This document shows, one piece after another, positions 1,699 through 64,000 of a stretch of 64,000 nucleotides of DNA; the stretch's first letter is position 1; each line of letters begins with the position of its first letter. The translations under genes and the position numbers were made by a program. Under the pieces are notes generated by a model. The model was not told the DNA's origin. It worked only from the letters and a program-made list of their open reading frames with translations, and ran no database searches. The stretch is from Paraspadella gotoi. Taxonomy: Eukaryota > Animalia > Chaetognatha. The stretch spans positions 6,003,991 to 6,067,990 of the forward strand of contig CM119271.1 of assembly GCA_051294375.1 (NCBI GenBank), in the 5' to 3' direction.

Positions 1699-1790
1699 AT
1701 ACTCTGGGAGTGAATAAACAAGACTGTGAGAGAGTCTTGATTGAAAGCTTGCAGGGACCTGCTATGTCATTATCTTGTAAGAGTGATGGA
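1699..1790. repeat. Dispersed repeat, also at ~9155, ~41429 and ~46256
   Basis: tactctgggagtgaata.ac.agactgtgagagagtct.gattgaaagcttgcag shared; hairpin caagac/gtcttg versus cgagac/gtctcg covaries. Confidence 0.75.
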
Positions 1791-2144
1791 GGCCTTAAAC
1801 CACCAAAGCCTGTCCAAAGTCAGGGGCAAGATAGCTTATTTATTAAATGAATGGATAATTTTTATATTGGTTGTACCAATTTCATATAATAATATAATAT
1901 AATGATGGAGGTCTTAAACCACCAATGACTGTCCAAAGTCTGGGGCAAGATAGCTTATTTATTAAATGAATCGATAATGATTATTTTGGTTGTACCAATT
2001 TCATACTAAAGAAAAAATACTTTAGGCTTGAACAGGTGGAACTGGTCCATTTTCTATGCATTATTGATTATGTCAAATTTTTTATGGGCGATTAGTCAAC
2101 TTAATTTCTCATTCCTAAACTGGAGGCTCGTAAAAGGCAAAAAC

Positions 2145-9091: not shown

Positions 9092-12000
9092 CTGAAACGC
9101 ATGACGGGTAAGAGGAGGAAAAATGTAATCTAAAAAATATAATTATATATAATATACTCTGGGAGTGAATAAACAAGACTGTGAGAGAGTCTTGATTGAA
9201 AAGCTTGCAGGGACCTGCTATGTCATTATCTTGTAAGAGTGATGGAGGCCTTAAAGCACCAAAGCCTGTCCAAAGTCAGGGGCAAGATGCTTATTTATTA
9301 AATGAATGGATAATTTTTGTATTGGTTGTACCAATTTCATATAAATAATATAATATAATGATGGAGGTCTTAAGCCACCAATGACTGTCCAAAGTCTGGG
9401 GCAAGATAGCTTTATGTTATTAAAATGAATCGATAATGATTATTTGGTTGTACCAATTTCATACTAAAGAAAAATACTTTAGGCTTGAACAGGTGGAACT
9501 GGTCCATTTTCTATGCATTATTGTTATTTCAAATTTTTTATGGGCGATTATCACTTAATTTCTCATTCCTAACTGGAGGCTCGTAAAAGGCAAAACCTGG
9601 ATATCGATGCTTCTAGCAAATAGAGACGAGAACGATTAATGGCCAACGAACCATGACTGACTGATATTGCTGGTGCTCAACCGTGATCTAACTGGTCAAA
9701 TTTTGAAGTCGGTGGCGTGAAAATCCCCGCAGACCTGTTTGTCGAATTCATGCATGGCTGGGGAAGATTTGGCAGAGAATGTAGTACCGGCAAATCCGAT
9801 GGGGATGCTTGCTGGAATTTACCTTTGTATAGGATTTTCGGTTTTTAAATTAAAGTTTTTTCGTTGTATTAAATCCTGCGCTTGACAGAAGAGATCCCCT
9901 TCCTGCAGTCTCCTTACACTATGGATGAGGATTTAAAGAAAAAAGTGGAGAACCCTCTGGTTTTTCTTCTGAAAAAAAACTCGCTCTTCTCATCTTCCTT
10001 ACTTTGTTCATCTTCTTATTGCAATTTTTTTATGTTTATTTTGTCACACGGACGTGAGTGTGAAGAATAAGTCTAGGGTAAAAATTTTTTTTTCGAAACT
10101 AAATAGTTGAAGAACTAACTTTGGTATAATCCTTTATGAGATACAACAGATAAATTATATAATTTGTTGACTGTTCTAATTTTTATTTTGTATTTGGCTC
10201 TTTTTGTTTAAAAAAAAAATTCTAAACCCCGCGTGGCGGATGCATTGTGTCACTTTTGAGACCCCCACACAACTCTTCAATTTTCAAAAAACATACGGAA
10301 AAGCCGGGTTTCATTCGTTCAAGGGTATGTGTATTTCTGTGGTGGTTGAGAAAAGCAATGATGCTCCATTGTGAAGTCGCATGCTTGTCAACACGTGAAA
10401 AAGAAAAAGTGAAAAAAATAAATAATCGGGGGGATAACCAAGGTGTGAATGAAAAAAGAGATTAAGTGAATTAAAAAGATACAATTGATAACGCAGACAA
10501 TGGTTCTTTTCCTCTTAACACAGAAATTTTTAGAAATTCGGATCTTGTTTAATGAAAAATTAAAAAAGGAATAGATACAAGAATGAATGGAAATGCGAAT
10601 ACAAGTGTTGATTACTCAGTGGTTGCTAATGACAAACAATTAATGCTGATTTCCAAAGAATACATGGAATCCTATGGATGGAATCTATTCTAATCATTGT
10701 TACGGCATAAAGTAAAGCTAGACTTGCCGTGTTGTGCGCAATTATCTTACGATAAATTTCCTATTAAATTGTATATATAAAAGTATACTAACATATTTAT
10801 GTAATTTTTTTGTTGTTTTAAGAAAGTATCTAACAACGTTATTTTTATGTTTGTGCCATTGAGTTATGGCTCTTCGGTCGTGATTTACTGACTTTAGTTC
10901 ATTTTTATCATTAGTTTTATGCGCGCGTATTGTTACGGAAAAGTGAGATTTTGAATCGGACTTAATAATATGATATTAAGGAAATTAGTTCTCACAAGAA
11001 GAATTTGGCCTCGCAATAGAATTTCGAATATCAATGTACTCGAGCTAATAGCAGAGAAAAAACGTTTTAGACCTTGCTTTCTTCTATTCAGGAATAAACA
11101 AGCAGACAGTCCAATACATTTCTTACATATTTCCTCCACAAGTAATACAGTCTTTACTCCTAATTCACGATTTCTGCATCGAATACTTTGATTTTCCGAA
11201 TTAGTAATTTATGTATTCATCGAAACTCCTAAAACGCAGTGGAAAAAACGTTTCTTTCGCTTTCCTCTTGTTTATTTTATTTAATACCGTTTACAACATT
11301 TGTCACTCGAGAATTACTTTCCCAAACAGAATGACTAATGTCCATTGCTAAAGATTCTCTGTTAGCAAATATAATCGTACAATTGATCCGCCAGAAAGGA
11401 AAAAAAACTTTTTCAAAGGACGCTTCGGTTGACTCGGCAAACGCAATTCGCTCTTCCTCTCCTCAGATTCAAAGAAGCGACGATCGATTTCCCTGTTCCT
11501 CGGAAATTCGTTCAGATGTACACGATTCACTTTCAATCCGAAGCTTGAATGTAACCGAGGCGTCTCTTCTTCCATCTCCTCCTATTCACATCATAACTTC
11601 CACTCTTCATCTTCCCATTTCTCTTTACGTTTTATATTCCAACCTTGTTCCACAGCCTTCCTCACTTTTCCACTCCTCATCTGCCAACCTTTTAATTTCC
11701 ACTCCTTTTCTTCCTCATTTATATTTCACTCCTATTTTTTTCTCCAAGGTATATTTCCAATTCTCATTTACTATTACTAATATATACTTTTGTAATTCCA
11801 ATCTGAGTCTTTCCACCTATCTTTTCACCCTGTACAATTCTTTTCCCATAATTTTTTTAAACATCATTACTTCCATCCTAGTCTTCCACATTTTTTATTT
11901 CAATTTCTTGATCTTTCCTCACTTTATCTTAAATTCCACTACTCCGTTTCTAATCTTTCCGCTACTAATCCTCGCAGTCCTTGCCAGTTTTGCTTCCTTT

Positions 12001-14439: not shown

Positions 14440-14546
<107 letters not shown>

Positions 14547-14982: not shown

Positions 14983-15074
<92 letters not shown>

Positions 15075-18733: not shown

Positions 18734-19556
18734 TCATTGCAACGCCGCTTCTTTTTGAGATGCGTCGCCGATTCTCCTCGACGAAGCATTGGAAAGGTTC
18801 GTTAACGAAGAAGGGACGACCGTTCGCGTCGACGCAGACGTTCCCTCATCTCCGCCGAATCCTTCCTGGCTGCAGTAGGTCATGTAGAGAAATCCGTCGT
18901 GGTCCTTTTCCTGATCGTAGATTTCGGCCAGAGTCAAGGAGAGAGTCGCCATCGAGCGTCGGTTGACGATGAAGAAAAACGCCTGTGTCTGCGAGACGGA
19001 CATCCGGCTCCGGATGATGGTGATGAATTGAGACATGGAGAGCTCCTGGGGGACGAGGAACTTGGTCTTGTCGAGTAGAGGCAGCTCCTTTTCTCGTCGG
19101 TATCGCTCGACGATGACGGGGATCTTCGTCGGGAACTTGGATCGAATGCCGTCAGTTTCTTCGCGCCGAGTCGCAAAGGACTTGCGCTGCTTGAAGGGCA
19201 GGAGGTTCTCGTGGAGGAAGCTCGGGGACTTGATGAGGGGCATCATGAAGGTCGGCATGGTGGAGGGTGGATGGCTGGGGGTGTCGGAGGAAGAGTAGGA
19301 AGAGGATAGGCTGGGGAAATAATTGAAAACTATTCATAATCTTAATTCGATGATCGAAGTTCAAATCCAATATTTCGCCCTTTATTAAAAAATATAAAAC
19401 TGCGGTATAATTGAAATTTATGTAAATTGATTAATAAAATCTAATTAAAAATTTATATAAAAAGGTAATTTATGAAACTTTCCCAATTCTACAACCTAAG
19501 AATAAAAAAAAGGAATAAAATGAAAGCTTTGCACGAATTGGTACTTACCTTTTCAT
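18734..19556 (-). CDS. MAP1LC3C: ATG8-family protein, LC3C type; main exon 18734-19310 plus probable micro first exon 19549-19556 (ATGAAAAG|gtaagt)
   Basis: PFKQRKS...KFPTKIPVIVERY...LDKTKFLVPQELSMSQF...DGFLYMTYCSQEGFG matches LC3C; upstream exon splices in frame adding MKSLSSSYSSSDTPSHPPST. Confidence 0.93.
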
Positions 19557-23807: not shown

Positions 23808-26800
23808 TTAAGCCGTCTCCAAGACGGTTGACTGCTTATGGATTGACTTGTCCTCTCCATCAGGCGACACCAAGGTGGTGGTGATATCCGCACCGGATCC
23901 CCAGCTCGAGCTGCCGCGCCAAACGACCTGGAAGGGCGGGTCGTCGACTGCGTCGGCCACGGCCGCCCAGACCTTGATCGTGCCACCGCTGGGCATGACG
24001 AAGCCCACGGGGAACCTGTAGACGAGTGCGTCGTTGTTGTCGACTTTGCGGCGGAGGGAGAATCCGTCGAGACTCTGGTCCTTGCCCTTCTTGTTCTCCA
24101 GCATGACGAAGGTGCCGTCGGGGCAGCACTCCGTGATGGCTACGGGACCCTTGGAGGATCTCTGGAAGGTCTTCTTGGAAGCCATCTCGCTCTTGGTGAC
24201 CATGACCTGTTGAGAGGCTCCGCCGGCCGAGGCCATGGCGGAGCTGGATGAGCTCTGGACCAACATGCCGCCGCCGCCGCCGCCGCCCGCCGCGGAGAGG
24301 CCGGCGCCCGCCGTCGTGTCCCTCAGGCGAGATTCTTCTCCCATCAAGAGGCGCCTGTAGGTGGCGATCTCGGCGTCAAGAGCCAACTTGCTGTCCATCA
24401 GCTCCTTCAGTTCGAGGATCTGAGCCGCTAATTGAGCCCGGAGCCGTTCGATCTCTGCCGCCTGTTGGGGATTGTGACCGATACTGGTATTTTAGTATAC
24501 ACATTAATTTATAATTGTTGATTCTGAGGTTTCTTATATATTTGTTGCCAATTTTAATTGTTATCTCATTTCTTATAGTTGACAAATATTGCTGTAGGTT
24601 CACATAAATTTTGTCGTTAAAAATGAATGTATGATTTTCCTAAAGTAATACTAAATATTTTCTTATATCCAAACACTTCTTGATTCTTCCAAATTTTGTT
24701 TAAATTCGGAATTTTATAATTTATGGTAAAAGAATAGCAATTAAAAAATGAATACAATCAAGTATTATGGCTCAAACTCGTGTACCTGATCGTCCGAGGC
24801 AGCCTCCTGATTCTTGTTGAGGAATTCCAACTCGGCCTCCAACTGCGCCACCCTCTCCAGCAACTCGGCGTTGTTGGCTCGAAGTCGCGAGATCTCCGCC
24901 TGCAGCTCCGAATATTTGGCGCGCGCGCGTTTGATCTCCTCTTTCGACTCGACGAGCTCTTGACCGGAGCGTTGAGACGTCGTCAGCATTTCGTTGAATT
25001 TCGCCTTTGAAGAGGAAAAGAGAGGAACAGGGTGAGAGAAAGAGCAGAGATACCTGGAAAAGGGAATGATAAAATGATGGGAGAGGTGCGGTTCTTAAGG
25101 GAGCTGGGATTTTTATCGTAGCTGACTGTTTGGGGACATCTTATACACTGTACAGTGTACACAAAGTAATTATTATTTTATTTTCATTTTTCTCAATTTA
25201 TCACCTAAATTTAAACGTTCAAGTTGTTTCTTATTGCTTTCATTCGTTGTCATTGGTTTTTTTTGTCTTCGCTTTCCAACATTGTTATTGCAATAAGGCA
25301 TATGCCTTTAGTTATGCATTTCCAAGCTCATTATTTGTGGACTGCAAGTCTACAGATATCTGACGCCCTTACGATTCTCCATTCCTCTCACCTTGTACCA
25401 CGAGTCCGTGTCGGCGCCCTTCTGCGACTCCAAGATAGCGTCGTATTCGGCGCGAATGTCCCTCAACGCCAAGGCCAACTCGTTGGAGAACATCGTCCTC
25501 CAGTCTTCCGAATCGAAGTTCATGTCCATCAGCTGGAAAAAGGAAGCTCGAAATTCAGCAACAAATCGGACAAAAAATCCAAACACGCTCATTCTTCGAT
25601 CTACTTTTCCGAAAGCGCCCCAATTCAGCCAAAATTTTTAATTAGGGGGTTTAAGGTTTAGTATTAGAAGATAAGGATTAGAATTAATGATTAGGTTTTG
25701 ATATTAAAGATTAAGTTAGCGTTAAAAATGAGTTTAAACATATTATTAAAAAATATTAGGGTGAAGAGACAGTAATTATTGTTATGTGTTAGTGATAGAA
25801 CCGTTCAATATAAGCAGTCCCTGAGCTTTGGATCAGGCTGTAACACCATGTTACAGGCGGGTTAAGCGCCCCGTCCCTCTTAACTGCCAGACGACCATCG
25901 GGCTAGAACCCCGGACCTTGGGGTTGGGAGGCGAATGACTTGCCTCCGGCACCAATGGCCGCTGATGAACAGTTGGTGGATTTTAGTTCACCATACATCC
26001 CCCCCCCGTAGGGAGAAGTCTGTTACATCTCTTCAGTGAATTGTTGTTGTTGGTGGAAAGTTCGTCACCAAGTTGAGGCATATCGCCTGATGTGTTGTGG
26101 GCGGAAAGTGCATCGCCAGGTTAAGGCATGTCGCCTGAAAGTGTTGTTGTTGCTGTTGTGTTCGGAAGTCGGGCTTACCAATGAAGAAACAGTAATTATT
26201 GTTATGTGTTAGCGATAGAACCGTTCAATATAAGCAGTCTCTGAGCTTCGGATCAGGCTGTAACACCATGTTACAGGCGGGTTAAGCGCCCCGTCCCTCT
26301 TAACTGCCAGACGACCATCGGGCTAGAACCCCGGACCTTGGGGTTGGGAGGCGAATGACTTGCCTCCGGCACCAATGGCCGCTGATGAACGGTTGGTGGA
26401 TTTTAGTCCACCATAAGGGTTAATTTTTAGATTTAAAATTAGGTTCAGGTATTACGAACAGAAATGAGCGCTTTCGGAAAATAGAGCCCATTCTCCCTCA
26501 CCTGACGAATCTTCTCCTCGTACATGTTCCTGAGAAAGTTAATCTCATCGTCTTTGGTCTGCACCATGGATTCGAGCTCGATGCGCGCCACGATCTCGGC
26601 GTCGGCCGCAGTCTTCGAGTCGCGGAGGTCGCGTTGGCTGCGCGCCAAGTCTCCCTTTGCGCGCGCGCACTCTCGCTCCAACGCGTCCACGGTTTTGGTG
26701 AGGTATTCGATCTGGGCATCGCGTTCCGAGATTCCCTTTTCTAAGGCAGGGAGGCGTTCCTGTGGTTTGGTTGTTTTTCGGTCTTTGTTTATTTTTAAAA

Positions 26801-29092: not shown

Positions 29093-29123
<31 letters not shown>

Positions 29124-31338
29124 TTGGGAGAGATTAAATTGGTCACGGTAAACATGGCTGGATTGGTTGGGTTAAAAAAAAAATAGATGTAGAAATAAAA
29201 AAACGTGAGTCGTAGTTTTTCAGAGTAATCATTGAAGAAAGGACCTTAGCTTATATTTGAATTGCTTTCATCCTTTGCTTGCCGTAAAAAAAAATTAGGA
29301 ATGTTATTCTTAAAGTTTTATTTCTATTAATGTAAAATAAATAAAATAAAATAAAATCAATAAATAAAATAAATAAAACGGATTCTATTTTAAATCTGAG
29401 GTGTAATCTCTCTCTGTTTTTCTAACACTCTCTTTCTCTCTCTCTCTCTTTGACTGCCTGGTTGACCCAGACGAAACTATGAGGGTTCGTCGTCAACATT
29501 AATTAAAATAATCCGGCGCCGTTGTTGTTGCTGTTGTCGTTGTTGTTTTCTCGTCCTCGTCGTTTATCAAAAAAATTCGTTGATCTTCGCCGTCGAGTCA
29601 TCGTCGATCGTTAAAACTGAAAAGACGACAGATTTTAGTTTTTTTGTTCTTCATTTTTTAAATCCTTTCTTATTCATCTCTCCCTCTCTCTCTCTCTCTC
29701 TCCCCCTCTCTTCCTCTCTCCCTTCATCTCTTCATAGTGCCGTATTTCTTTAAAGAACGTTTTTATCATTTATCTTTAGACTTTACTTGACGTGTCTTTA
29801 ATTTTCTCTCTCTCAAAAAAAAAAATCCTTAAACCAAACATTCTATACATACATTTCTTTCTCCTTTCTTTTTAAATCCAGCCTCCTCCTTTAAACGTGA
29901 AAAAACGTCCTCTCCATCGAAGGGATGGCATCACCCTCAGAAAAATGTCGCAAATTGGATGGCAAATTGGATGGCATCACTCTCAGAAAAATGTCACAAA
30001 TTAAAACGAGTTTACTGATTCTAACATCTCTGTGTCTTTTACTTCTTTTTTTAATTTTTTAAGTCTTTTACAGTATAAATCTAAGTTTTGAAGAGACAGT
30101 AATTATTGTTATATGTTAGTGACAGTCCCTGAGCTTCGGATCAGCCTGTAACACCGTGTTACAGGCCTGTTAGGCGCCCCGTCCCTCTTAACTGCGGGCT
30201 AGAACCCTGGACCTTTGTGTTGTGTTGACGAATGATTTGCCTCCGGCACCAATGGCCACTGATGAACGGTTAGTGGATTTTAGTCCACCAGTTTCTTGAA
30301 ATTCTGCATGATGCATTTTACAACAAAATTCTTTCAAGAGTTTTTTTATTTTTTCTTTTTGTTGCAAAAAATAAAACAAAAAAGAAAATGAACTGAACTT
30401 CGTCTCTTTAATAACTGCTCACAATGTATGGTTTTCCAAGGTTATATTTTCTTAGTCAGTTAAAAGGTTTTCCAAAATATTATTTAAAAAAAATGAAACA
30501 AACCAGAAACTCAGTCTTAACTTTTTTTTTTCACTGTAGAACAAAGAATTTCATTGTGAATCGTCATTCGAAAAATTCGTGAGTCTAAATTGAAAAGGAA
30601 GTGAAATCCGGAGGATGAGAAGAAAACGCCCGAATCTTCTTTGTACAGGCGATTCAAAAAAAAAGAGTGAAAGGATACATAAAATGCATATTGCATACTG
30701 CAAATAATACACAGATAATGCCAATATGGCGCCCGAGAAAGCGGTGGATCTCACTTGTTGACGTTACAGATCAATGATATTAACTGTCGCGGTTTAACAC
30801 GCACTGTCACGCTTCGCCAACAAAGCCGGAGACCTCCGGGAATAAACCCGGAACTCTCAAATAGTGGGTTAGACTACCGGTTTGTGGCGATTCCGTGGCC
30901 AATGGAAAAAGTCATTTTCCCTCCCATGACTGTTGAGCATGTCAAGGTGGCCAGCTCGCCGTGATTATAAACTGTTATTTAACTATGTAAAAAATGCATC
31001 ATGTTGATTTCGTCGATTGCTCTCTGAATCGCCGGATCGGTCTACAGTCGGCATGCTGACTTCCTTCAGATGCCCTTGCCGCTCGGAGGTCAGACCGACG
31101 CTTTCGAAAAGGGCGTCGCGAAAATTGAGCTGTTGTATGTCATAAAAAAATTGACTTGTATGTAAGAATATTGAATTTTTTAAAAAAACTTTTATTTGTC
31201 TTTTTTTTAACGTTTTCGACTTTGAAGGAATAAAAATGTTTGGTTCGGTTTTTTGATCGCGCGCGATCGCTCGCATTGAGAACGATGAGCGAAGTGAGAG
31301 AAGAATACGAGAGAGAGATAGACAAGAGAGAGATTTAA

Positions 31339-31371
<33 letters not shown>

Positions 31372-33095: not shown

Positions 33096-33165
<70 letters not shown>

Positions 33166-35111: not shown

Positions 35112-35140
<29 letters not shown>
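29093..35140. repeat. Inverted duplication with ~3 kb arms centred on the gaps at 32021-32287
   Basis: atgcttgggagagattaaattggtcacgg at ~29120 is the reverse complement of ~35085-35115, and homology continues to the centre; arms differ by substitutions and indels. Confidence 0.95.
30089..30290 (-). mobile_element. Solo LTR of the 25762 family with degenerate twister (30123-30195)
   Basis: TGAAGAGACAG...TAGTCCACCA flanked by GTTT on both sides; absent from the other arm (empty site at 34171-34174). Confidence 0.9.
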
Positions 35141-35155
<15 letters not shown>

Positions 35156-35436: not shown

Positions 35437-38400
35437 CTCTCTCTCTAATTTTACAGTTTTCTCACTCTTTTTTTTCCCGTAACGACGACGACGACGTACA
35501 TGACAAGTTAACCTTTTATAAAGTTGTCGTTGTACAATGAAGTAGGAAACAAAATTGTTTTGATTATCACCTTTTAAAATTATTATGCTTTTTGTCTCTC
35601 TCCAACCCCAGTATCATTTTGGAAAACAACAGCCATAGATTTTCACAAATGAGAAAAACCTGGTATAGAAAAACCTAATGTATCTGCTATAGCATTTAAA
35701 TACTTTTTGTAACAAAATTAAATCCAAGCCTTGAGAAAAAGAGAGATTGAAAGAGTGATATTCCGCATTTCCAAACGACTTTCAGGTGTGGGATGTTAAA
35801 CTAACACTCACTCTCAGTGACTGAAACGAATGTGAAAAAAAAAAAATTTTCTTGAGAGAATTTTTTTTCCTCTCTCTTTTCTGTCCGCGATAAATCATTC
35901 ACAAGGGGGGAAAATGAGCGAGTTTGTATAAACAGAAAAAGAAAAGCTTTTTTTTCCCTCGATTTAAGCACAAATATAGAAGAAAAAAAAATACTAGTTA
36001 GTTTTAAACAAATTTTTGTAACAAAAATTTTAAGCGGTCACCAACTCTCGATTTGAAAAGAGGAGAAAATTTAAAAACCGAATGACGAATTAAGGAATAA
36101 TTAAAATAATAATAATAATAATAATTAAAATAGTTAAAATCTTCCCATCCCCCCCCCCAAAAAAAACCTCGAGACTCGAATTTGTTTTTCTGTTTTGTTT
36201 GAGAAGAAACAGAAGCCGGCGAAAATTCAAAGATGAGGTTTTCTGGGCGATCGAGTGTATCGCATCTCCAAACAATGCATGAGTAACGGGCGACGGCCTT
36301 CGAAGGCGGAACGACCCGAAGAGAAAATTCGAGCAACGCCCTCAAAAACTGAAAAATCATTCAAAACTCGATACTTTCAATGATAATAAAAAAAAAGCAT
36401 TGCCTTGGTAAAGTTATAGCAACGATCATAAAATCGCTACAATTAAAATAAAAATTATCCGTTGATTCGAACCAAATTGATTGGGCTATGGTGGGTAATT
36501 GCCTAAGTCTCTAGCAAGAAAACAGCATGGCAAAACCCTAAAAACTAAAGTTAATAATAGGTTAAATACGTATTAGTGAATGATTCCGACAGTCAAATTC
36601 GTTTCTTTACAGTTGCGACATGCAACTTCAAGCTTGAATAACAGGCTTTGCAATCGTAAAAAAACTTTTCCTCATTTGAAAAAAAGACTGTTTCGCAGAA
36701 AATACCAAATATTTTTAGTTTGCCACACTGCATGTAAAAAAAACTATCTTATCAATACTTCGTATCAACGACCGAATTAAAAAAAAAGAAAGAAAAAAAA
36801 AAAGAAAAGAAAAAAAGCGTTCGATCGTCCATTATGGGATCGACGATCGCGGGGCGTCGTCGTCGTCGTCGGTTTCTTCCGCCACATTTTCGTCGTCTTT
36901 ATCGTCGTCGGTTTTGGCTCCCGAATCAATTTCCCGGTGATTAATTCGAAGGGGGGGGCGGGGGGCGGGTGAGTGAAAGAAAGGAGGCGGGAGAAGATGA
37001 GGTGGCGACGCGAGATTACTTCGGAGGAGATGAGGCGGAAGCGAGGATGGGTCGACCTTTTTTTTCTAAATGGGTGAGTCTGACCCCGAAGGCGAAGGGA
37101 CTGTGAGCGAAGATCGTCTATTGGGCGCCCGGCCGAGAATGGGAGGGGAGCAATCTCCGCCCCGGTGCGGAGTGGGAGGGGGGCAATCGGGGCAATCGGG
37201 CAATCGGGCTCTCCTGGCGGGAGAGAGAGCGTGAAGAGACGGTCGTAAAGATCTCGCAAGGAAAGGCGAAAATCTTTGGTCTTGGATTAAAAAGTAAAAA
37301 CAACGAAACTTATGTTTTCTTCGAAATAAGAAACAAAAAACATACGTACTATATATCTGAACGTTGTATGTAAATAGTTAGTAGTTTATTGATACTTAAT
37401 TCAGATTTTTTAGAGTTTGGTGAGTTTTATGTACTTTGCTGGTTAATACAACTACAGTTTGTTCCATTATCAAATTTACTAGCGAGGAAAAATATAGTAA
37501 GCTACAAGGTCAACAATACTATTATTAGTATTAATACTATCAACTATTACGACAAAAGGAGCCATGATACAATGGGACCAACAAGCCACAGTGAGTAATG
37601 TTTAAATCGCTCATGTTTTTTTCAAAACATATAGTGAACAATAAAAGTACTTCAATATTAAACGATAAAGAGCGAGAGGTCAGAAACTAGAAATAAGGAA
37701 AAAAAATGGCGAAACAGGAAAATAAAGGAGAAATAAAGGAAGGCGGAGAAAAAGGGGGGAGAAAAATAAACGGGGGGGAAATGTAAATTTTTTTTAAACG
37801 AAACTGAGCGATGAAGCGAAATCGAGAAAGTAAGATGGAAAAACGCGCGAAAAATCGATGACCGAAGCAAAAAAAAAAAAAAAAAAAAAAAAACGAGATA
37901 AGATTTACGTATTTTCGTTACGTTGTTTTTTTAATTTTATAGCAATTAGACAATTTTTTTAAAATATGTTTTTCTTGCTTACCTCTTACCCGCGATGCTG
38001 ATGTTTTTTAAAACTTGTAACGTTGTAAAAACAGTAAAATTACAAAAACAGAATTTGTTTCTCGCTCATGTACTCTCTGCATGTGTGTGTGTGTGTCACT
38101 CTTTCTCTTTCTCTCCTTTTTTTCTCTCTTTTTTTTTTTTTTTTCTAAACGGCCAAATTTCTCAAATGAAACGTAAATAATAAATTTTTATTCTTTCTAA
38201 ATTATTAAACAAAAAGAGTGAATGAAATTCCTCAATGAAAAAAAAAGAAAAAGAAAAAAAAAAACAAAGAAAATAAAACAAAAGAAAAACGTTTCATTTT
38301 AATTCAAAGCCTGATATTTTACGGATGAGTAATTTCGATAAAAAATCGTATTGTAGAAGGCATTTCATTTAGGTTTACATGAAATTTTAGTGCCTCACGG

Positions 38401-38919
38401 ATAAGACAAATTTATTTATTAAGCGGTTTGCGTCCGCCTTAGCATTGGCCACTGCACGATGGGGCGCCAAAACGAGGCGGGTCAAGAGAACCTTTATGAA
38501 CCAATTAGAAAAGATTCACAGGTTCTCTCTTTTTGAAATGCAATAAGTTAACAGTAAGGAGATCACCAGGCCATCAGGGCGGTTAGGCGTCAAACCAGTT
38601 ATTTGCCACAACCGGAGACAATAAAAATCGCTCTGTGAAATAGTAAAGATCGAAAATGACATCGTGTTTTGCCTTTCGGAAAAATATTTATCAGGACGAG
38701 GACGAAGAAGTCACGTCGTTCGACGAGCCTGAAAATTTTTGCTCGTTTAAATAATTAATTAATCGACCCACCCCCCGCATGTATTCGTATAGTTCTATTG
38801 ATAAGTTACACTCGTCGAAACATCAATTAATAGTGAGATATTAGTAAGATTAAAGGAAAATGCAGAGTTTAGAACTGTGAAGAAATAAATGTTAAAAGTC
38901 GAAGGCGCTTGTTTTTTCA

Positions 38920-40135
38920 TTTATGTTTCATATTTATCGTGCCGTCGACAGGTTTAGTTATTGCCCCCAAAAATCATTATGTATGTAACTCTCTTATGTT
39001 TCCCTGCTGTTTTTATAGCAAAAAGGTTTTCGAACCTTCGCGTAAAACGCACAAATTCAGAAATGCAGCGCCCGCGTAATCGACAAATTAAGAGAAATTT
39101 TAAATCGTTACAAAAAATTTTAAAAACTAATATTTTCAAGTATCCTAAAATTGTCAATGCGACGAGGGATATTGCTACCCAGATATGAAACGCCATTCGA
39201 TTCTTGAATATGTTTCATATTTATCGTGCCGTCGACAGGTTTAGTTATTGCCCAAAAAAATTTATTATGTATGTAACTCTCTTTATGTTCCCTTGCTGTT
39301 TTTATAGCAAAAAGGTTTTCGAACCTCGCATAAAACGCACAAATTCAGAAATGCAGCACCCGCCGGAATCGAACGATTAAAAGAGATTTTAAATTGTTTC
39401 AAAAAATTTTAAAAACTAATATTTCAAGTATCCTAAAATTGTCAATGCGACAAGGGATATTGCTACCCAGATATGAAACGCCATTCCGATTCTTGAATAT
39501 GTTTCATATTTATCGTGCCGTCGACAGGTTTAGTTATTGTCCAAAAAATTCATTATGTATGTAACTCTCTTATGTTTCCTTGCTGTTTTTATAGCAAAAA
39601 GGTTTTCGAACCTTCGCGTAAAACGCACAAATTCAAAAGCAGCGCCGCGGAATCGACGAATTAAAAGAGATTTTAAATTGTTTCAAAAAATTTTAAAAAC
39701 TAATATTTTCAAGTATCCTAAAATTGTCAATGCGACGAGTGATAGTGCTACCCAGATATGAACGGCATTCGCTACCTGAGGTGCTTATAACCATTTCCAT
39801 TCTTGAATATGTTTCATATTTATCGTGCCGTTGACAGGTTTGTTATTGCCCAGAAAAGTTCATATGTATGAATTGGTACAACCAATATAAAAATTATATG
39901 TATGTAACTCTCTTATGTTTCACGGCTGTTTTTAAAGCAAAAGGTTTTTGAACCTTCGCGTAATCGACGAATCGACGAATCAATAGAAATTTGAAATCGT
40001 TTTAAAAAATGTAAAAAAACTAATATTTACAAGTATCCTAAAATTGTCAATGCGACGAGTGATATTGCTACCCAGATATGAAACGACATTCGCCGCCTTG
40101 AGGTGCTTTTAAAACCATTTCCAGATTCTTGAATT
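38920..40135. repeat. ~290 bp tandem repeat, about 4 units
   Basis: tatgtttcatatttatcgtgccgtcgacaggtttagttattg recurs every ~290 bp. Confidence 0.93.
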
Positions 40136-40857
40136 GCCGAAGGCCGATCGCCGCCATAAACGTCAAAGATCATTCAACCAGATGACGGGATAAGTTAGTT
40201 TATTTTACTTTTATTTTTTTAAATTGTTCTTTCGGTTTTTCCCACAACTAAACTCACCGTTTTCCTATTTTACTTTTATCATTTAGTCTTATTTGTTTGT
40301 TTATTTTTCATCGATTATATCAAAATCTCGATCATTTGTTGCTTTTTTTAATTGTTTTATTATTTTTTTTTTTCGCTTTATACGTAGTCGACGTTATGTC
40401 CTATTATCTCACAGTCGGAATCTCTCGAGAAAAAAAAAACCTTCAAACATGTCGTTTCCCTTTTTTTCGCGCTCTCCAAAGCCGAGGAATATCGATCGAG
40501 GCGCCCTCTCCTAACCGCAGCCTCACACCTCGACGCGAAGACGATCTGGTCGCTGCGCCGTCACGTTTTGGTCGAAATTTATCAGGGAGTGCGAATTCAT
40601 GTAACGCTGAGGGCTGAGCCATTACTATTATAAGACAAAGATAATAATTGAAATGAAAAAAACGGTAACAACATCTGTTTTACTTGACTGATAAAAAAAA
40701 CTACAACTCATCGCATTACATAAAATTTACATTATCCTATATCTTCATCTAAATTCTCATACAGTAAGGCTTCGCAAAGCATGCACACTCGTTTCTGGTA
40801 ATGCGCTTGCCACACCAAAACACTCTGGCTTCCACTTTCTAATCTCCACGCCAAGAT

Positions 40858-42660
40858 TCAATTGGTGTTGAGCATAAGACACACCCTTGCAGGATCCAAT
40901 GGCTGGAGTGTTCGGTCTAAAGAGGTCGGCTTCGAAAACGAGACCGACTCCCATAGCGTTTCGTCGGTCGGAAGTGGTGTAGACCGGAGTACGAAGAGTG
41001 TTCTGTAGGAAAAGAGAAAATGAGTACCTTTGTTATATTCTGATTAACTCTACTTAGTACTTAATACAAGGGAAATACTTTTTTTTTGACTGTTCGGTAT
41101 TTGATAAGATAAGATATGCGTTTTTTTTCGTTCACAACAAATTTTTTGAAAAAGAACATTCAATATTCCATTACACACACAAAAAATAATTGCATTAATT
41201 GATTTTTTTACAATTCAAAACAATGTAAATAATAAAATTAACGAAGCATAGGTAACCCCAGCCCCCCCAAAAAAATTGAGTTAACTACGTATAATCAGCT
41301 AAATGACTAAATTTTATAACGCAATTTAATTTAGTACAACTGAAACATCGTCACAATTCTCACCTTCTTCTCACTTTTATTATTACTATTTTCGTCTTCT
41401 ACACCACTTCAGAGATAGGGAGGCCAAGTACTCTGGGAGTGAATACACGAGACTGTGAGAGAGTCTCGATTGAAAGCTTGCAGTATCCTGCTATGTTATT
41501 ATTCTGTAAGAGTGATGTCCGAAGTCACGGAAAATATTTATAGAAGATTTATTGAATGAATGAATAATTTTATATTTCAATTTCATAATAAGAAATACAT
41601 GAGTCTTCCATTTTTAAATATCATAAGTCGGAAAATCATATGTCATATATCATATGTCACTTTGCTGTCATTTGACTATAAAATAATATAATAAATATAT
41701 TAAATAATCAATCGTGCGCATCAGAGACCTTTTATATGTATTATTATGTTGTGTCATTGAATCTTTCATTGAAATGGCTAAATTTAGTATTCTTCAAATA
41801 AGAATTTAAAATTTTTTTATCTTAATTTTATTCAAAATCCGTGCAAAACAAAGCACCTGCAATTTGAGACGATGACTTCGATCGGAATGACTCTTGAGGA
41901 TGGGCAGCTCCTTTATCAGCTCCTTGGGTAGGGATCTCTCCAACCCCCCAATCGCGTAGTTCCATCCTGCGCCTTCCAAGTAGAGTCCGCGACGTATGAC
42001 CTAATAGAAAAAATATGAGTGTGATTAATCGCTTAAAGATTCTCGTAAAAGGGCTGAAATAAGGAATAAGGTTTTTTCAAAATAATTTAGAAAAAACATG
42101 TCGTTATTATTGTTTCAAATAAATCGTTGTTGAATTCATTTCAAACTTTTCTCTTAAATCTCAACCGCAACGAAACGAAGGATTATAATGTCTACAAAAT
42201 AATTATTCTGAACGGAGTCATTTAAAGTGTTTACAATTTTAAAGAAGGGACATGTTTTTAAGAAAAAAAATTGTTCAGTAAAAAAGTAACATTAATCCAA
42301 ACGCAGTATTTTACACAAATATGCAAATGAGATTTAGGGGACATAAGTGAGGCTGATGTTATAACATTATGATAAGACTGTGGAGTACGATGTTATGTAA
42401 AGTTGTGTGAGAGTTAGCAGGGGACGAGCGCCGTGTGATAGATCGCACGTCAAAATTTCACGAGTACCCGAGCTGGCGATCGTTCTTGAATCTCATCCGC
42501 CGTCGAGAACTGCGGTCCGGAAGTGGTACAGTCCGTCGACTGTGGAGAGCGCAATCCGGTCGTCGACGAGTCATGCTGTGGAGGGTGATGGGGGAGGGTT
42601 GCGCGAAGCGCTGTCTCGGAGACGCAGGCTCGTGTGCTGTGGAGCGCGTGCGTAATCCGA
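40858..42660 (-). pseudogene. DNAH10: Duplicate of the last three DNAH10 exons (probably redundant assembly)
   Basis: Contains [22 protein letters not shown] and GLYLEGAGW-type sequence with frameshifts; 42466-42660 is highly degraded. Confidence 0.6.
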
Positions 42661-43768
42661 GGTGAGGTCTCGTCTCTTTGGTGGGNNNNNNNNNNNNNNN
42701 NNNNNNNNNNAAAAAAAAAAAAAAAAAAACGAGATAAGATTATACGTATTTTCTGTTACGTTGTTTTTTTAATTTTTTTATAGCAATTAGACATTTTCTT
42801 TTAAAAATATTGTTTTTCTTGCTTACCTCTTACCCCGCGATGCTGAATGTTTTTTTAAAACTTGTAACGGTTGTAAAAACAGTAAATTACAAAAACAGAA
42901 TATTGTTTCTCGCTCATGTACTCTCTGCATGTGTGTGTGTGTGTCACTCTTTCTCTTTCTCTCCTTTTTTCGCTTCTTTTTTTTCTAAACGGCCAAATTT
43001 CTCAAATGAAACGTAAATAATAAATTTTTATTCTTTCTAAATTATTAAACAAAAAAGAGTGAATGAAATTCCTCAATGAAAAAAAAAGAAAAAGAAAAAA
43101 AAAACAAAGAAAATAAAACAAAAGAAAAACGTTTCCATTTAAATTCAAAGCCTGATATTTTACGGATGAGTAATTTCGATAAAAATCGTATTCGTACGAA
43201 GGCATTTCATTTAGGTTTACATGAAATTTTAGTGCCTCACGGATAAGACAAATTTATTTATTAAGCGGTTTGCGTCCGCCTTAGCATTGGCCACTGCACC
43301 GATGGGGCGCCAAAACGAGGCGGGTCAAGAGAACCTTTATGAACCAATTAGAAAAGATTCACAGGTTCTCTCTCTTTTGAAATGCAATAAAGTTAACAGT
43401 AAGGAGATCACCAGGCCATCAGGGCGGTTAGGCGTCAAACCAGTTATTTGCCACAACCGGAGACAATAAAAATCGCTCTGTGAAATAGTAAAGATCGAAA
43501 ATGACATCGTGTTTTGCCTTTCGGAAAAATATTTATCAGGACGAGGACGAAGAAGTCACGTCGTTCGACGAGCCTGAAAATTTTTTGCTCGTTTAAATAA
43601 TTAATTAATCGACCCACCCCCCGCATGTATTCGTATAGTTCTATTGATAAGTTACACTCGTCGAAACATCAATTAATAGTGAGATATTAGTAAGATTAAA
43701 GGAAAAATGCAGAGTTTAGAACTGTGAAGAAATAAATGTTAAAAGTCGAAGGGCGTGTTCATATCATT

Positions 43769-44996
43769 TATGTTTCATATTTATCGTGCCGTCGACAGGT
43801 TTAGTTATTGCCCCCAAAAATTCATTATGTATGTAACTCTCTTATGTTTCCCTGCTGTTTTTATAGCAAAAAGGTTTTCGAACCTTCGCGTAAAACGCAC
43901 AAATTCAGAAATGCAGCGCCCGCGTAATCGACAAATTAAGAGAGATTTTAAATCGTTACAAAAAATTTTAAAAACTAATATTTTCAAGTATCCTAAAATT
44001 GTCAATGCGACGAGGGATATTGCTACCCAGATATGAAACGCCATTCTGGATTCTTGAATATGTTTCATATTTATCGTGCCGTCGACAGGTTTAGTTATTG
44101 CCCAAAAAAATTTATTATGTATGTAACTCTCTTATGTTTCCCTGCTGTTTTTATAGCAAAAAGGTTTTCGAACCTTCGCATAAAACGCACAAATTCAGAA
44201 ATGCAGCACCCGCGGAATCGACGAATTAAAAGAGATTTTAAATTGTTTCAAAAAATTTTAAAAACTAATATTTTCAAGTATCCTAAAATTGTCAATGCGA
44301 CAAGGGATATTGCTACCCAGATATGAAACGCCATTCCGGATTCTTGAATATGTTTCATATTTATCGTGCCGTCGACAGGTTTAGTTATTGTCCAAAAAAA
44401 TTCATTATGTATGTAACTCTCTTATGTTTCCTTGCTGTTTTTATAGCAAAAAGGTTTTCGAACCTTCGCGTAAAACGCACAAATTCAGAAATGCAGCGCC
44501 CGCGGAATCGACGAATTAAAAGAGATTTTAAATTGTTTCAAAAAATTTTAAAAACTAATATTTTCAAGTATCCTAAAATTGTCAATGCGACGAGTGATAG
44601 TGCTACCCAGATATGAAACGGCATTCGCTACCTTGAGGTGCTTTTAAAACCATTTCCTGATTCTTGAATATGTTTCATATTTATCGTGCCGTTGACAGGT
44701 TTAGTTATTGCCCAGAAAAGTTCATTATGTATGAAATTGGTACAACCAATATAAAAATTATATGTATGTAACTCTCTTATGTTTCACGGCTGTTTTTAAA
44801 GCAAAAGGTTTTTGAACCTTCGCGTAATCGACGAATCGACGAATCAATAGAAATTTGAAATCGTTTTAAAAAATGTAAAAAACTAATATTTACAAGTATC
44901 CTAAAATTGTCAATGCGACGAGTGATATTGCTACCCAGATATGAAACGACATTCGCCGCCTTGAGGTGCTTTTAAAACCATTTCCAGATTCTTGAA
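43769..44996. repeat. ~290 bp tandem repeat, about 4 units (second copy)
   Basis: Same unit; ORF track shows near-identical peptides at a 290 bp period. Confidence 0.93.
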
Positions 44997-45721
44997 TTGC
45001 CGAAGGCCGATCGCCGCCATAAACGTCAAAGATCATTCAACCAGATGACGGGATAAGTTAGTTTATTTTACTTTTATTTTTTTAAATTGTTTCTTTCGGT
45101 TTTTCCCACAACTAAACTCACCGTTTTCCTATTTTACTTTTATCATTTAGTCTTATTTGTTTGTTTATTTTTCATCGATTATATCAAAATCTCGATCATT
45201 GTTGCTTTTTTTAATTGTTTTATTATTTTTTTTTTCGCTTTATACGTAGTCGACGTTATGTCCTATTTATCTCAAGTCGGAATCTCTCGAGAAAAAAAAA
45301 ACCTTCAAACATGTCGTTTCCCTTTTTTTTTCGCGCTCTCCAAAGCCGAGGAATATCGATCGAGGCGCCCTCTCCTAACCGCAGCCTCACACCTCGACGC
45401 GAAGACGATCTGGTCGCTGCGCCGTCACGTTTGGTCGAAATTTATCAGGGAGTGCGAATTCAATGTAACGCTGAGGGCTGAGCCATTACTATTATAAGAC
45501 AAAGATAATAATTGAAATGAAAAAAACGGTAACAACATCTGTTTTACTTGACTGATAAAAAAAACTACAACTCATCGCATTACATAAAATTTACATTATC
45601 CTATATCTTCATCTAAATTCTCATACAGTAAGGCTTCGCAAAAGCAATGCACTCGTTTCTGGTAATGCGCTTGCCACACCAAAACACTCTGGCTTCCACT
45701 TTCTAATCTCCACGCCAAGAT

Positions 45722-48700
45722 TCAATTGGTGTTGAGCATAAGACACACCCCTTGCAGGATCCAATGGCTGGAGTGTTCGGTCGTAAAGAGGTCGGCTTCG
45801 AAAACGAGACCGACTCCCATAGCGTTTCGTCGGTCGGAAGTGGTGTAGACCGGAGTACGAAGAGTGTTCTTAGGAAAAGAGAAAATGAGTACCTTTGTTA
45901 TATTCTGATTAACTCTACTTAGTACTTAATACAAGGGAAATACTTTTTTTTTTGACTGTTCGGATATTTGATAAGATAAGATATGCGTTTTTTTCGTTCA
46001 CAACAAATTTTTGAAAAAGAACATTCAATATTCCATTCACACACACAAAAATAATTGCATTAATTGATTTTTTTACAATTGAAAACAATGTAAATAATAA
46101 ATTAAAGAAGCATAGGTAACCCCAGCCCCCCCAAAAAAAATTGAGTTAACTACGTACAATCAGCTAAATGACTAAATTTTTATAACGCAATATAATTTAG
46201 TACAACTGAAACATTCCTTGAAAAATTATACTACTTCAGAGATAGGGAGGCCAGGTACTCTGGGAGTGAATACACGAGACTGTGAGAGAGTCTCGATTGA
46301 AAGCTTGCAGTATCCTGCTATGTTATTATCTTGTAATAGTGATGTCCGAAGTCACGGAAAATATTTATAGAAGATTTATTGAATGAATGAATAATTTTAT
46401 ATTTCAATTTCATAATAAGAAATACATGAGTCTTCAATTTTTAAATATCATAAGTCGGAAAAATCATATGTCATATATCATATGTCACTTTGCTGTCATT
46501 TGACTAATAAAATAATATAATATAATAATATAATAATCAAGTCGTGCAATCAGAGACCTTTCTATATGTATTATTATGTTGTGTCATTGAATCCTTTCAT
46601 TGAAATGGCTAAATTTAGTATTCTTTCAAATAAGAATTTAAAATATTTTTTTATCTTAATTTGATTCAAATCCGTGCAAACAAAGCACCTGCAATTTGAG
46701 ACGATGACTCTCGATCGGAATGACTTTGAGGATGGGCAGCTCCTTTATCAGCTCCTTGGGTAGGGATCTCTCCAACCCCCCAATCGCGTAGTTCCATCCT
46801 GCGCCTTCCAAGTAGAGTCCGCGGACGTATGAACCTAATAGAAAAAAATATGAGTGTGATAAATTCGCTTAAAGATTCTCGTAAAAAAGGGCTGAAATAA
46901 GGAATAAGGTTTTTCAAAATAATTTAGAAAAAACATGTCCGTTATTATTGTTTCAAATAAATCGTTGTTGAATTCATTTCAAACTTTTCTCTAAATCTCA
47001 ACCGCAACGAAACGAAAGGATTATAATGTCTACAAAATAATTAGATTCGAACGGAGTCATTTAAAGTGTTTACAATTTTAAAGAACGGGACATGTTTTTA
47101 AGAAAAAAAATTGTTCAGTAAAAAAGTAACATTAATCCAAACGCAGTATTTTACACAAATATGCAAATGAGATTTAGGAACTTATAACATTATAACATTA
47201 TGTAACTTATTACATTATGTAAATTCTTTAATTAAGACTAGGAGAGCGCGCTATAATCCGTCAAAATTGTCACGTACCCGAGTGCGATCGTTCTTGAATC
47301 TCATCCGCCGATCGAAACTGCGTCACGGAAGTGTACAGCGTCGACTTGTCGAGAGGCCAACCGTTTCGTCGACACGTCGCTTGCACCAACGCTGTCAGGA
47401 ACGACTCTGGGATGTGGAGGCCGGAAAGCCAGATGACCGCCGGTTCGCCTTCGATCACCTAGAAGGAACGAGACGGGATTTTCTCTCTCTCTCTGTTTCG
47501 CTGAAGTTTAAATAAACGAGTTGCGTCCACACGAGCCCCTTATCAAATTTTTTACCTCATCGAGTTAAGGGATCAATAAACCCTTACAGCAACAAGACTA
47601 CTTTTCGACAGCACATTTTTTTCCCTTCAGTTCCATTAGTTTAATATATTTGACCTTTAAAGAGTTCTGAACATTAGGCTTTTCTTCCTAATTTTTTTCT
47701 TTTAAATTTTCAATATTTCTTTAATGTTTAATAAGTGGAAGGAGTGAAATGGGGTGGGCCTTAAAAATATTAATAAAAGCAGCATGAGTGTTGACGGTTT
47801 TTTCCTTAAAGTTTCCCCAGAAACAATTTTTTTAGGTTTTCCATTATCAGTTACTACAGTATAAATTTCTTTTAAATTGCTCGTACCACTCTTAAATTTT
47901 TATTCGTCAAACAAAAGAGGTAAGTTTAATAATAACGCTGTCTTTGGTCTTTAAGTTTTAAAATTTATTAAAGATTTTTGAATGATTAAATTTTACAGCA
48001 TCATTTGCAGCATCAGCAGCATTTACAGCATCATAGTTGATCGGCTCACATTGATACAAAATAATTAAACTACTTCATGATAATTTGAAACCGACCGCAA
48101 AAAGAAAAATGGTCACAATTTTTTTTCAAAATAGTCCTGCGATATTATTCCCTTTCTTCCAAAACTAGAGTAAACTAAACATAATGACATAATAAGAAGT
48201 CACGATATGTATATTAAGGTGGATCGAGTAAGGAGTTAAGGTTTACCTCTCGGTTATTTCGTTACTAGTCATGGACGAGAATGAAAATATAAAACTGTGG
48301 CGAATCCTAAATTCGACTCCCGTATAGCTTGGTGAAACTCAGCTCGTCCCTTTGGCTTGGACAGCTAAGTAGTAAGTACTCATTCACCAACCGTGAGTTC
48401 CGGGTTCGATCCCCTCACGGTCACGCTGGTTAAAGTGTGATGGTGTCGGCATAAACACGCCAGAGATATGGTGAGGTCACTGCAGGTCCAAAGCCCTGAG
48501 TGCCAGCTGTTGGGAGATGCCTGACACCCCAGGCATCATACATGTCCCTCCGTTGCCATAAAACTAACTTTTTATAACTATTACACACATTAGGCATTTT
48601 TAACTATATGCAAATTATAATATGCAAATGAGATTAAGATACATAATTTAATTTAATTAATTTAATTCGATTTTTTTTCTTTCTCCTCTTTATGTTCCTC

Positions 48701-62450: not shown

Positions 62451-63099
62451 CTGACCGAGACAAACGTCGTTGTCATTCTTATCAATAAATGTTTAGTACT
62501 TTTTTTTTTATCACTAAGATTTTTCGAAGATTTTTTACGTATATCGTACATATATATATATCGTTTACAAGATTCTAAATGATTTCAATAAAGATGAGTA
62601 ATGCTCTCCAGCATGGTTGAAAACAAAAAGATGTGGCACAGCTTAAAGCTGCTCAGCTGGCTGTCCGTCCCTCAGGCCCTCGTCTCAATGGTGAGCAGGC
62701 TAAATCTATTATATCCGATCCTGCGTTGCGTCGGTTAAATCCCTGGGTATTCGCGTTCTGGCTTAAATGTGACGGTGCGGTATGGAAATGCAGTGACAGG
62801 AGCGGTGCAGGTAGGGTCCGCAGCCCTACGCCAGTGGTGAGATACGGCCTGGCCCACGCGGTATCACAGGCTATCCTCCCGTTGCCCATAATATAATATA
62901 TATATATCGTTTACAAGATTCTAAATGATTTCAATAAAAGATGAGTAATCTCTACCAGATGGTTGGAAAACAAAGAGTGTGGCAGCAAGACTAAAGCTGC
63001 CTCACTGCTGTCCGTCCTCAGCTCGTCTCAATGCGTAGCAGGCCTAAATCATCTCATTCCATCCGTGCGTCCCGGGTTCAATCCCTGGTATCCCGGTTT

Positions 63100-63180
63100 C
63101 TGGCTTAAATGTGACGGTGCCGGTATAAACATGCCAGTGACAGGAGGCGGTTCACTGAGGGTCCGCAGCCCCTACGCCAG
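63100..63180 (+). ncRNA. Twister ribozyme, type P5 (array unit 2)
   Basis: CUGGC UUAA AUGU GA CGG UGCCGGUA UAA ACAU GC C[P3]G AGGG UCCGCAGC CCCU AC GCCAG; predicted cut 63126/63127. Confidence 0.85.
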
Positions 63181-63443
63181 TTGGTGAGATACCCCGCGCC
63201 CCGGTATCACAGGCTATCCTCCGTTGCCATAATATTATATATATATATCGTTTACCAGATTCTAAATGATTTCAATAATAAGACGAGTAATCTCTACCAG
63301 ATGGTTGGAAAACAAAAGAGTGTGGCAGCAAGACTTAAAGCTGCCTACTGCTGTCCGTCCTCAGCCTCGTCTCAATGGCTGAGCAGGCTAAATCATCTCA
63401 TTCCATCCGTGCGTCCGGGTTCAATCCCCGGGTATCCCGTGTT

Positions 63444-63524
63444 CTGGCTTAAATGTGACGGTGCCGGTAATAAACATGCCAGTGACAGGAGGCGGTCACT
63501 GAGGGTCCGCAGCCCCTACGCCAG
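63444..63524 (+). ncRNA. Twister ribozyme, type P5 (array unit 3)
   Basis: As unit 2 with perfect P3 CAGUGAC/GUCACUG and one extra A next to P1; units 1 (62758-62834) and 4 (~63810-63892) are noisier. Confidence 0.75.
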
Positions 63525-64000
63525 TTTGTAGATACCGCGCCCCGGGTATCACAGGCTATCCTCCCGTTCCATAAATATGATATATATATATATCGTTACA
63601 AATTCTAATGATTTTCAATAAAAGACGAGTAATCTCTACCAGATTGGTTGGAAGACAAAAGAGTGTGCAGCAAGACTTAAAGCTGTCCTCACTGCGTCCG
63701 TCCCAGCCTTCGTGCTCAATGGGTTGCTGGCTTCAGCAGCGCTCATATCATCTCATTCCGATTTCCGTGCGCGTCTCCGGGTTCATCCCGCGGGCTATCC
63801 CGGGTTCTCGGCTTAAATGTGACGGTTGCCGGGTCTACAAACATGCCAGTGACAGGAGGCGGTCACTGACGGTCCCGCAGCCCCTACGCCGAGTTGGTTG
63901 TATATTATCTTTCCCTGCCTTCTGGGTATCTACAGGCTAGTCCTCTTGTTGTTGCCATAAATTATATTATATATATCGTTTACATAGATTTCTAAATTGA

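Follow-up and report, generated by a model that had tools for sequence, protein, structure and literature searches.

Type-P5 twister-like motifs with a short palindromic P1 in small non-coding elements of Paraspadella gotoi: candidates for cleavage as dimers

In a stretch of 64,000 nucleotides from the chaetognath Paraspadella gotoi (the whole of it is called the window below), several repeats carry what looks like a twister ribozyme in which a palindrome of a few nucleotides stands in the place of the helix P1. Does this palindrome serve to pair two copies of the repeat, so that cleavage would be favoured in transcripts holding two of them? Searches with a descriptor, with BLAST and with profiles found 12 twister-like motifs in the window, in four families which we call A to D; beyond these 12 copies, the profile search of the window returned nothing at E<1.

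62.7-63.9 kb: four copies of the motif, family A
48.4 kb: one copy, family B
25.8, 26.2 and 30.1 kb, minus strand: three copies, family C
1.8-1.9 and 9.2-9.4 kb: four copies, family D, the second pair within a 7.4-kb duplicate

Copies beyond the window are known through assembled public contigs only. The genes of the window are those of a lamin-tail intermediate filament protein, of ATG8 and of a dynein heavy chain; the ATG8/LC3-type gene (18734-19333, minus strand) is a single intronless open frame with long extensions at both ends. The assembly behind the window is error-prone; the window contains five N gaps and large duplications, some direct and some inverted. One can notice a direct duplication of about 7.4 kb (465-15554, 93%) and another of about 4.8 kb (37875-47373, 91-97%); both have an N gap close to the end or right at it, and they are probably uncollapsed haplotypes or assembly duplicates. 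There is also an inverted duplication at 29093-35142, with arms 90-92% identical and a centre near the N gaps at 32.0-32.3 kb.

The fold of the motifs is of the type-P5 twister-like kind, and it was followed in the copies A2, B, C1, C2 and D1, where P2, P4 and the terminal P5 pair with covariation. The parts of the A2 and B motifs are the following.

63100..63180, plus strand: type-P5 twister-like fold of copy A2, in which P5, P2, T1, T2, P3 and P4 all pair
63118..63125, plus strand: P1 palindrome UGCCGGUA of copy A2, with cleavage predicted between 63126 and 63127
48425-48507, plus strand: twister of family B, with P1 at 48444-48451 (UGUCGGCA) and a B box at 48403-48413

Between families, the letters of P2, P4 and P5 differ throughout while the pairing is kept; the pseudoknots covary as well, T1 as CCG/CGG versus CCA/UGG and T2 as GC/GC versus AC/GU. 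In 10 aligned copies, the GA-GG and AA of L1 and the L4 bases vary little or not at all, and among these conserved positions are the general-base G and the A following the cut. The imperfections are a P2 with only 2 of 3 pairs in families C and D, one T1 mismatch in C2 (the 3' LTR copy of family C) and a damaged UAA in A1 and A4. A MAFFT alignment of the copies left the helices out of register, and no pair counts were drawn from it. Rfam gave no match in the window at the gathering level, for hammerheads included. At two copies the best family was Twister-P5 (RF02684), with 22.6 bits at 48435-48498 (family B) and 25.8 bits at 1782-1824 (family D), below the gathering threshold of 37.6 bits. 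As the helices change letters from one family to another and yet stay paired, we regard the fold as real and, judging from the sequences, the motifs as very probably twisters.

In A and B, the word GCCAG (63129-63137, 48455-48463) occurs after P2 and again as the 3' strand of P5. The 5' strand of P5 has two possible partners there, one of which would hide T2, and this might act as a folding switch.

P1 is 6-8 nt long and fills exactly the interval from the GANGG strand of L1 to the UAA of the cleavage site. The palindromes named in the sequence-only reading are found at this place: UGCCGGUA at 63118-63125 (A2), UGUCGGCA at 48444-48451 (B) and, on the minus strand, GGCGCU at 26290-26285 and 25870-25865 and GGCGCC at 30178-30173 (family C). 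Family D, with AGGCCU or AGGUCU, was missing from that list and is therefore a fresh, out-of-sample case. The accompanying claim that P1 is a palindrome in every copy holds for 9 copies out of 12 if G-U pairs are allowed (A2, B, C1-C3, D1, D2 and the duplicates D1b and D2b) but not for the three others: P1 is broken in A1 (62776-62782) and in A4 (63826-63837), and that of A3 consists of the intact 8-mer plus one additional A. The units of the array to which these copies belong differ mainly by indels (6 substitutions and 16 gap columns between units 2 and 3), and the additional A of A3 is missing from the public contigs of 3 of the 4 runs; hence, the breaks are probably read errors.

P1 had also been described as too short to fold by itself and able to pair with a second copy, and the energies agree with both statements: the forced hairpin has 1-2 bp and costs +2.9 to +5.6 kcal/mol, while the self-duplex is worth -8.3 to -11.7 kcal/mol, with the exception of the D2-type AGGUCU (-0.8 kcal/mol). 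This means that the stable P1 hairpin, which is a criterion of type P5, is found in none of the families.

A hairpin would need the outer pairs of P1 too, so that the dimer idea can be tested only at the inner four bases. With the outer pair or pairs granted, the chance that the inner four nucleotides are self-complementary is p=3.5e-4 when four families are counted, p=2.6e-3 for three lineages and 0.019 for two; the four families being related, there are perhaps only two independent cases (p=0.019). Five different inner tetramers occur in the palindromic copies, and the background of fully self-complementary 6-mers in the window is 5%. The loose-end consensus of the public contigs, AACCGGUU, is still palindromic (9 contigs, 0.67 agreement). 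In the best-supported rows of these contigs, the outer positions of P1 are substituted and inner changes appear in 1-2 contigs each; the changes observed in the outer pairs suit a hairpin and a duplex equally. We concluded that the P1 feature is real and non-random, and we think it probable that the palindrome was retained for pairing between copies.

Is such a P1 common in twisters of this type? A viral scan with a general P5 pattern gave at least 120 loci, to which a strict pairing filter was then applied; it was passed by 33 among the 120 loci listed (19 distinct sequences), and in all of these 33 phage twisters P1 is a hairpin of 17-26 nt with 6-11 bp. Two further viral scans, with P1 restricted to 4-12 nt, gave 197 loci, 4 of which passed the structure filter. 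None of the 197 is a true short-P1 type-P5 twister: on inspection, one of the four (L173) is a tandem pair of type-P1 twisters, another (L206) is a row identical to it, the third (L216) is a long-hairpin P5 and in the last T1 fails. The filter was passed by 0 of 73 pattern matches in bacterial genomes and by 0 of 3 in metagenomes. The viral control scans show that a short palindromic P1 is not the norm in type P5. In the tandem pair just mentioned (L173:99-200, minus strand, a phage contig), the two type-P1 twisters stand back to back, the 3' strand of P1 of the first running directly into the second.

The dimer idea requires a transcript with two copies, and the natural one is the LTR-internal-LTR element of family C, whose parts are listed here together with a solo copy.

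26182..26415, minus strand: 5' LTR of family C (234 bp), with the twister at 26307-26234 and P1 GGCGCU at 26290-26285
25996..26181, minus strand: internal region (186 bp), with a PBS-like site right after the LTR and a G-rich PPT at 26007-25996
25762..25995, minus strand: 3' LTR, with the twister at 25887-25814, P1 at 25870-25865 and 6 substitutions relative to the 5' LTR
30089..30290, minus strand: solo LTR of family C, with AAAC on both sides, P1 GGCGCC at 30178-30173 and a partly unpaired P2
34171..34174, plus strand: empty site for the solo copy, with a single AAAC, in the other arm of the inverted duplication

The full element (26415-25762, minus strand) measures 654 bp, that is 234 for the first LTR, 186 for the internal region and 234 for the second LTR. 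It is bordered on both sides by CCCT, a 4-bp target duplication, and lies within the intermediate-filament gene, in one of its introns and with the same orientation. Its PBS-like site shares 13 of 16 letters with the published tRNA-Trp PBS and is not of the Met type; the LTR ends are TA...CA or TG...TA rather than plain TG...CA. It is the only full two-LTR element in the window, where A, B and D have none, and only in family C is a ribozyme motif found in both LTRs around a non-coding internal region. The 35 open frames of at least 130 aa in the window include no RT-like frame, and a YxDD motif is absent from its open frames over 80 aa. The solo copy is present in just one arm of the inverted duplication at 29093-35142.

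Families A and B are represented by other kinds of copies.

62978..63231, plus strand: family A element, solo-LTR-like, with ends TGT...ATA and a 9-bp imperfect terminal inverted repeat
63075..63085, plus strand: tRNA-type B box of copy A2, upstream of the twister; the A box is weakly matched
63232..63320, plus strand: array spacer, which begins in a (TA)n run and has low depth in public runs
62550..64000, plus strand: tandem array of about four 344-bp units (spacer plus family A element), which leaves the window; A1, A3 and A4 are indel-rich
48296..48560, plus strand: family B element, solo, with AAAC on both sides and inverted TGT...ATA ends

A and B are about 70% identical, B being a diverged relative of A, and both resemble solo LTRs and contain a tRNA-type B box. 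This box stands shortly before the twister in A, B and C; an A box is matched only in the solo copy of C and weakly in A, and ARAGORN reports no tRNA. The missing TTTT, the terminator of RNA polymerase III, was rejected as a signal, since units without it are frequent among shuffles (P 0.23-0.71). A, B and C also have in common a short hairpin whose loop is rich in A; it stands at their starts (62978-63007, 48296-48320 and 26415-26395), ahead of the promoter boxes.

The sequence-only reading implied head-to-tail repeats cut into monomers, and for family A this fits poorly. In public DNA runs the summed depth, which does not measure copy number, is 10^4-10^5 for the A element and 0-110 for the 80-nt spacer. 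This contrast in depth indicates that family A is a very abundant dispersed element and that the spacer is flanking DNA rather than an internal region shared by the family. The 344-bp array is then either a local duplication of the element and its flank or a read artefact; no public contig spans the array junction with 31 letters on each side. The pattern of animal non-LTR retrozymes (a head-to-tail mobile unit, a type I hammerhead, no PBS or PPT) was not found here.

Family D is organised as pairs.

1700..2004, plus strand: family D pair, made of a 186-bp copy and, behind it, a copy truncated at its 5' end, in AT-rich/TA-rich DNA
1772-1832, plus strand: family D twister, with P1 AGGCCU at 1790-1795 and AGGUCU at 1909-1914
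9155..9462, plus strand: second family D pair, in the 7.4-kb duplicate, with P1 at 9246-9251 and 9365-9370

The second pair is probably an assembly or haplotype duplicate of the first region, and no B box was found in family D. Relatives of D which lack the middle of the twister (P1, P2 and the 5' side of P4) and still have L4-like letters lie at 41429-41576 and 46256-46403, and in a tandem repeat of 288-290 bp (38922-39770, 43769-44626) 30 bp in inverted orientation match the 3' end of D.

What would two copies do in one RNA? The copies can swap P5, P2 and P1 with one another, and the structure stays fully nested. For the natural two-copy sequences, in cis, the swapped double fold is better than two monomer twister folds by 3.9 kcal/mol in family C and by 6.6 kcal/mol in family A. 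Unconstrained folding did not recover the twister fold in most constructs: the P1-P1 helix has a probability of 0.27 in the A dimer and 0.0 in family C, where neither the monomer nor the dimer twister appears (pseudoknots not counted), and the free minimum is lower than the monomer and dimer twister folds by 15-23 kcal/mol, again with pseudoknots not counted. The idea of cleavage as dimers receives indirect support from palindromes of different letters in four families, from the long P1 of phages and from the favoured swapped fold; against it stands the reported dispensability of P1. Cleavage may well be clearly favoured in dimers, for which we would give slightly better than even odds. Our main reading, to which we assign a probability of roughly 0.55, is that small non-coding retroelements have these twister folds in their terminal repeats, and that the palindromic P1 would be the handle through which two copies assemble a swapped double ribozyme, cleaving much better than a lone copy.

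This reading has to be weighed against the simpler one of a monomer ribozyme with a minimal P1 (1-2 bp with a 4-nt loop, or none), the palindrome being incidental or a small boost. According to the accessible text of two papers (PMC5408937, PMC11662667), P1 is dispensable and twisters without it cleave at an almost wild-type rate, so that monomers may be active; the accessible text of a third (PMC8501958) describes natural Schistosoma variants which cleave with a poor P1. The constructs in question are, as far as those texts go, open-ended type-P1 molecules and not molecules with a closed 6-nt linker, and the monomer reading stays alive. Moreover, a monomer fold can be drawn for each family, and in the alignment of copy B to the Rfam P5 model P1 has 2 bp. 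What this reading leaves unexplained is the self-complementarity of the inner bases, with different letters in each family (p 3.5e-4 to 0.019), and the presence of palindromes at the corresponding place in two records of Naiad elements, to which we return below. The P1 loops would be CCGG, GCGC and GGCC, none of which, to our knowledge, belongs to the stable tetraloop classes. We therefore regard a purely monomeric ribozyme as unlikely.

A second possibility concerns the origin of A, B and D, which might be non-autonomous derivatives of Naiad Penelope-like elements, of the pseudo-LTR or retrozyme type; two-copy transcripts would then arise from partial tandems, of which the 344-bp array and the D pair are examples. 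Six variants of the L4 motif were searched in the Naiad supplement (Craig et al. 2021, PMC8557442), and the 18 places found were read by eye. Twister-like folds were recognised in this way at 2 of the 18 places, the 3' end of Naiad-1_Movir and a record which is probably Naiad-4_Chem; both have P5, P2, T1, T2 and P4, and two palindromes in the place of P1. The accessible text of the same paper mentions a preference for (TA)n targets and partial tandems, and on ribozymes it reports only the lack of canonical hammerheads. These two traits are seen at D, a full copy followed by a 5'-truncated one in TA-rich DNA, and at the A array junction, but not at B or C: the 4-bp duplication of B is exact and its ends are inverted, and C has a PBS, a PPT, 4-bp duplications and an empty site. 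The window contains no RT-like frame and, near the motifs, no frame of the Naiad GIY-YIG/RT type; the window's own L4 letters found no twister in the Naiad supplement, and the Naiad folds differ from ours in T1 and in having two palindromes. For the three families taken together we consider a Naiad origin rather improbable, while for family D it is likely; the dimer mechanism could be compatible with it.

Several other Naiad records (PMC8557442, File S5) were seen by eye to end in GAAAC and later to show CTGATGA/G, that is the two halves of a hammerhead core in swapped order; in some of these, GGCC immediately precedes GAAAC.

The palindrome might also be an RNA dimerisation or packaging signal in a P1 loop, comparable to the dimer-initiation sites of retroviruses and Ty1, with cleavage independent of it. 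Short GC-rich palindromes serve LTR retroelements in packaging their RNA as dimers, the family C element has LTRs, a PBS and a PPT, and the self-duplex energies reach -8 to -12 kcal/mol. Here, the whole P1 segment is the palindrome and no stem supports it; besides, the palindrome occurs in family D, where no LTR, PBS or PPT was seen, and in the Naiad records. We find a packaging signal improbable. That the motifs are dead relics or chance matches is very improbable: although no Rfam match reaches the gathering threshold and several copies are damaged, five helices covary across the four families, and the structure filter let through none of the bacterial or metagenome pattern matches.

Coming back to the swapped double ribozyme, we can sketch the cycle of a family C element. 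The fold, the palindromes and the LTR-PBS-internal-PPT-LTR arrangement with its 4-bp duplications can be read directly in the window; the rest of the cycle we infer, and for transcription by RNA polymerase III, circularisation and mobilisation by a Gypsy-type partner we do so from the accessible texts on plant retrozymes (PMC4918200) and on Helenus (PMC10886601). RNA polymerase III would start at the tRNA-like boxes of the first LTR and read into the second. The two LTR palindromes would then pair, so that each active site would be made of the GANGG strand of one LTR and the UAA strand of the other. Cutting at both sites would release a unit of 420 nt holding the PBS, the PPT and the promoter boxes, which a host ligase may circularise and which a Gypsy-type partner may reverse-transcribe and integrate. 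The circle and the solo copies, including those within host transcripts, would have one weak ribozyme each and would mostly stay uncut; a dimer requirement would in this way keep the circle intact and leave host RNAs with a single copy unharmed. A precedent exists in axolotl hammerheads with one base pair and a palindromic tetraloop: dimers of these cleave well, monomers poorly (PMC7229834, accessible text).

More tentatively, family C could stand for a class of animal LTR-retrozymes with a tRNA-derived promoter of RNA polymerase III and Gypsy-type ends. Its obligate dimeric twister would fire only when both LTRs are in one transcript, cutting out and then protecting a circular monomer, and host RNAs would come to no harm from the thousands of solo copies. 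A palindrome gate would have arisen by convergence in twisters and hammerheads, and it would account for the ribozyme missing from some Naiads. We hold this larger picture to be possible, though somewhat doubtful.

In the literature, where subscription papers were thinly covered and older twister supplements may list short-P1 cases, neither a twister that cleaves as a dimer nor an LTR element with a twister came to light. The accessible parts of PMC10085705, PMC7761336 and PMC8782182 contain nothing on twister dimers, those of bioRxiv 10.64898/2026.07.22.740005 do not mention the twister, and the word "dimer" is absent from PMC8501958. If the main reading is true, it gives a natural role to a helix which is conserved and yet reported to be dispensable, it is a case of convergence of twisters with double hammerheads, and it provides a simple two-copy switch for RNA engineering.

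It remains to compare these elements with known systems. They share with the type-P5 twister (RF02684) the order of strands, L1 (GANGG / UAA), L4, T1 and T2, P2, P4 and the ending in P5. They differ from it by their sub-threshold scores and by a P1 which is a palindrome of 6-8 nt instead of the 6-11-bp hairpin of the 33 phage examples. The Perere-3 / RTE variants of Schistosoma are, like them, weak-P1 twisters in animal retrotransposons, but their P1 is open-ended, stands at the 5' end of a LINE and is formed with the target site (PMC8501958, accessible text). The Naiads resemble them by a P5 twister-like fold, by palindromes at the P1 position and, in the accessible text of PMC8557442, by (TA)n targets and partial tandems; the Naiad folds differ in carrying two palindromes and in sitting behind an RT gene.

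Family C is built like two known kinds of elements and is filed under neither, because its ribozyme is not a hammerhead and because its likeness to Helenus was judged by layout. Helenus or TRIMp3 elements (Kojima 2024, PMC10886601, accessible text) are TRIMs 311-1263 bp long whose LTR contains tRNA-derived boxes; they have a PBS, a PPT and, in animals, a 4-bp duplication, they are held to have arisen several times, and a PBS of the Trp type is known among them in wasps. With its 654 bp, two LTRs, PBS, PPT and 4-bp duplication, family C falls within these limits as far as layout is compared. The difference is the twister, which is not mentioned in the accessible text of that paper; in the Helenus consensus file, where line breaks can hide matches, the six L4 variants gave 5 matches and no twister in an LTR. 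The LTR-retrozymes, described mainly from plants (Cervera et al. 2016, PMC4918200, accessible text), have in common with family C a ribozyme in both LTRs, a non-coding internal region, a PBS, a PPT, a 4-bp duplication and solo LTRs. In contrast, the element of the window belongs to an animal, has a twister and not a type III hammerhead, has a Trp-like and not a Met PBS, is smaller (654 bp) and has tRNA-type promoter boxes.

Hammerheads are a ribozyme class unrelated to twisters and need their stem III, whereas P1 is reported to be dispensable in twisters. With this difference in mind, the double hammerheads of newt and axolotl retrozymes and of Penelope-like elements (PMC7229834, PMC6765202, accessible texts) are the predicted working model for the motif.
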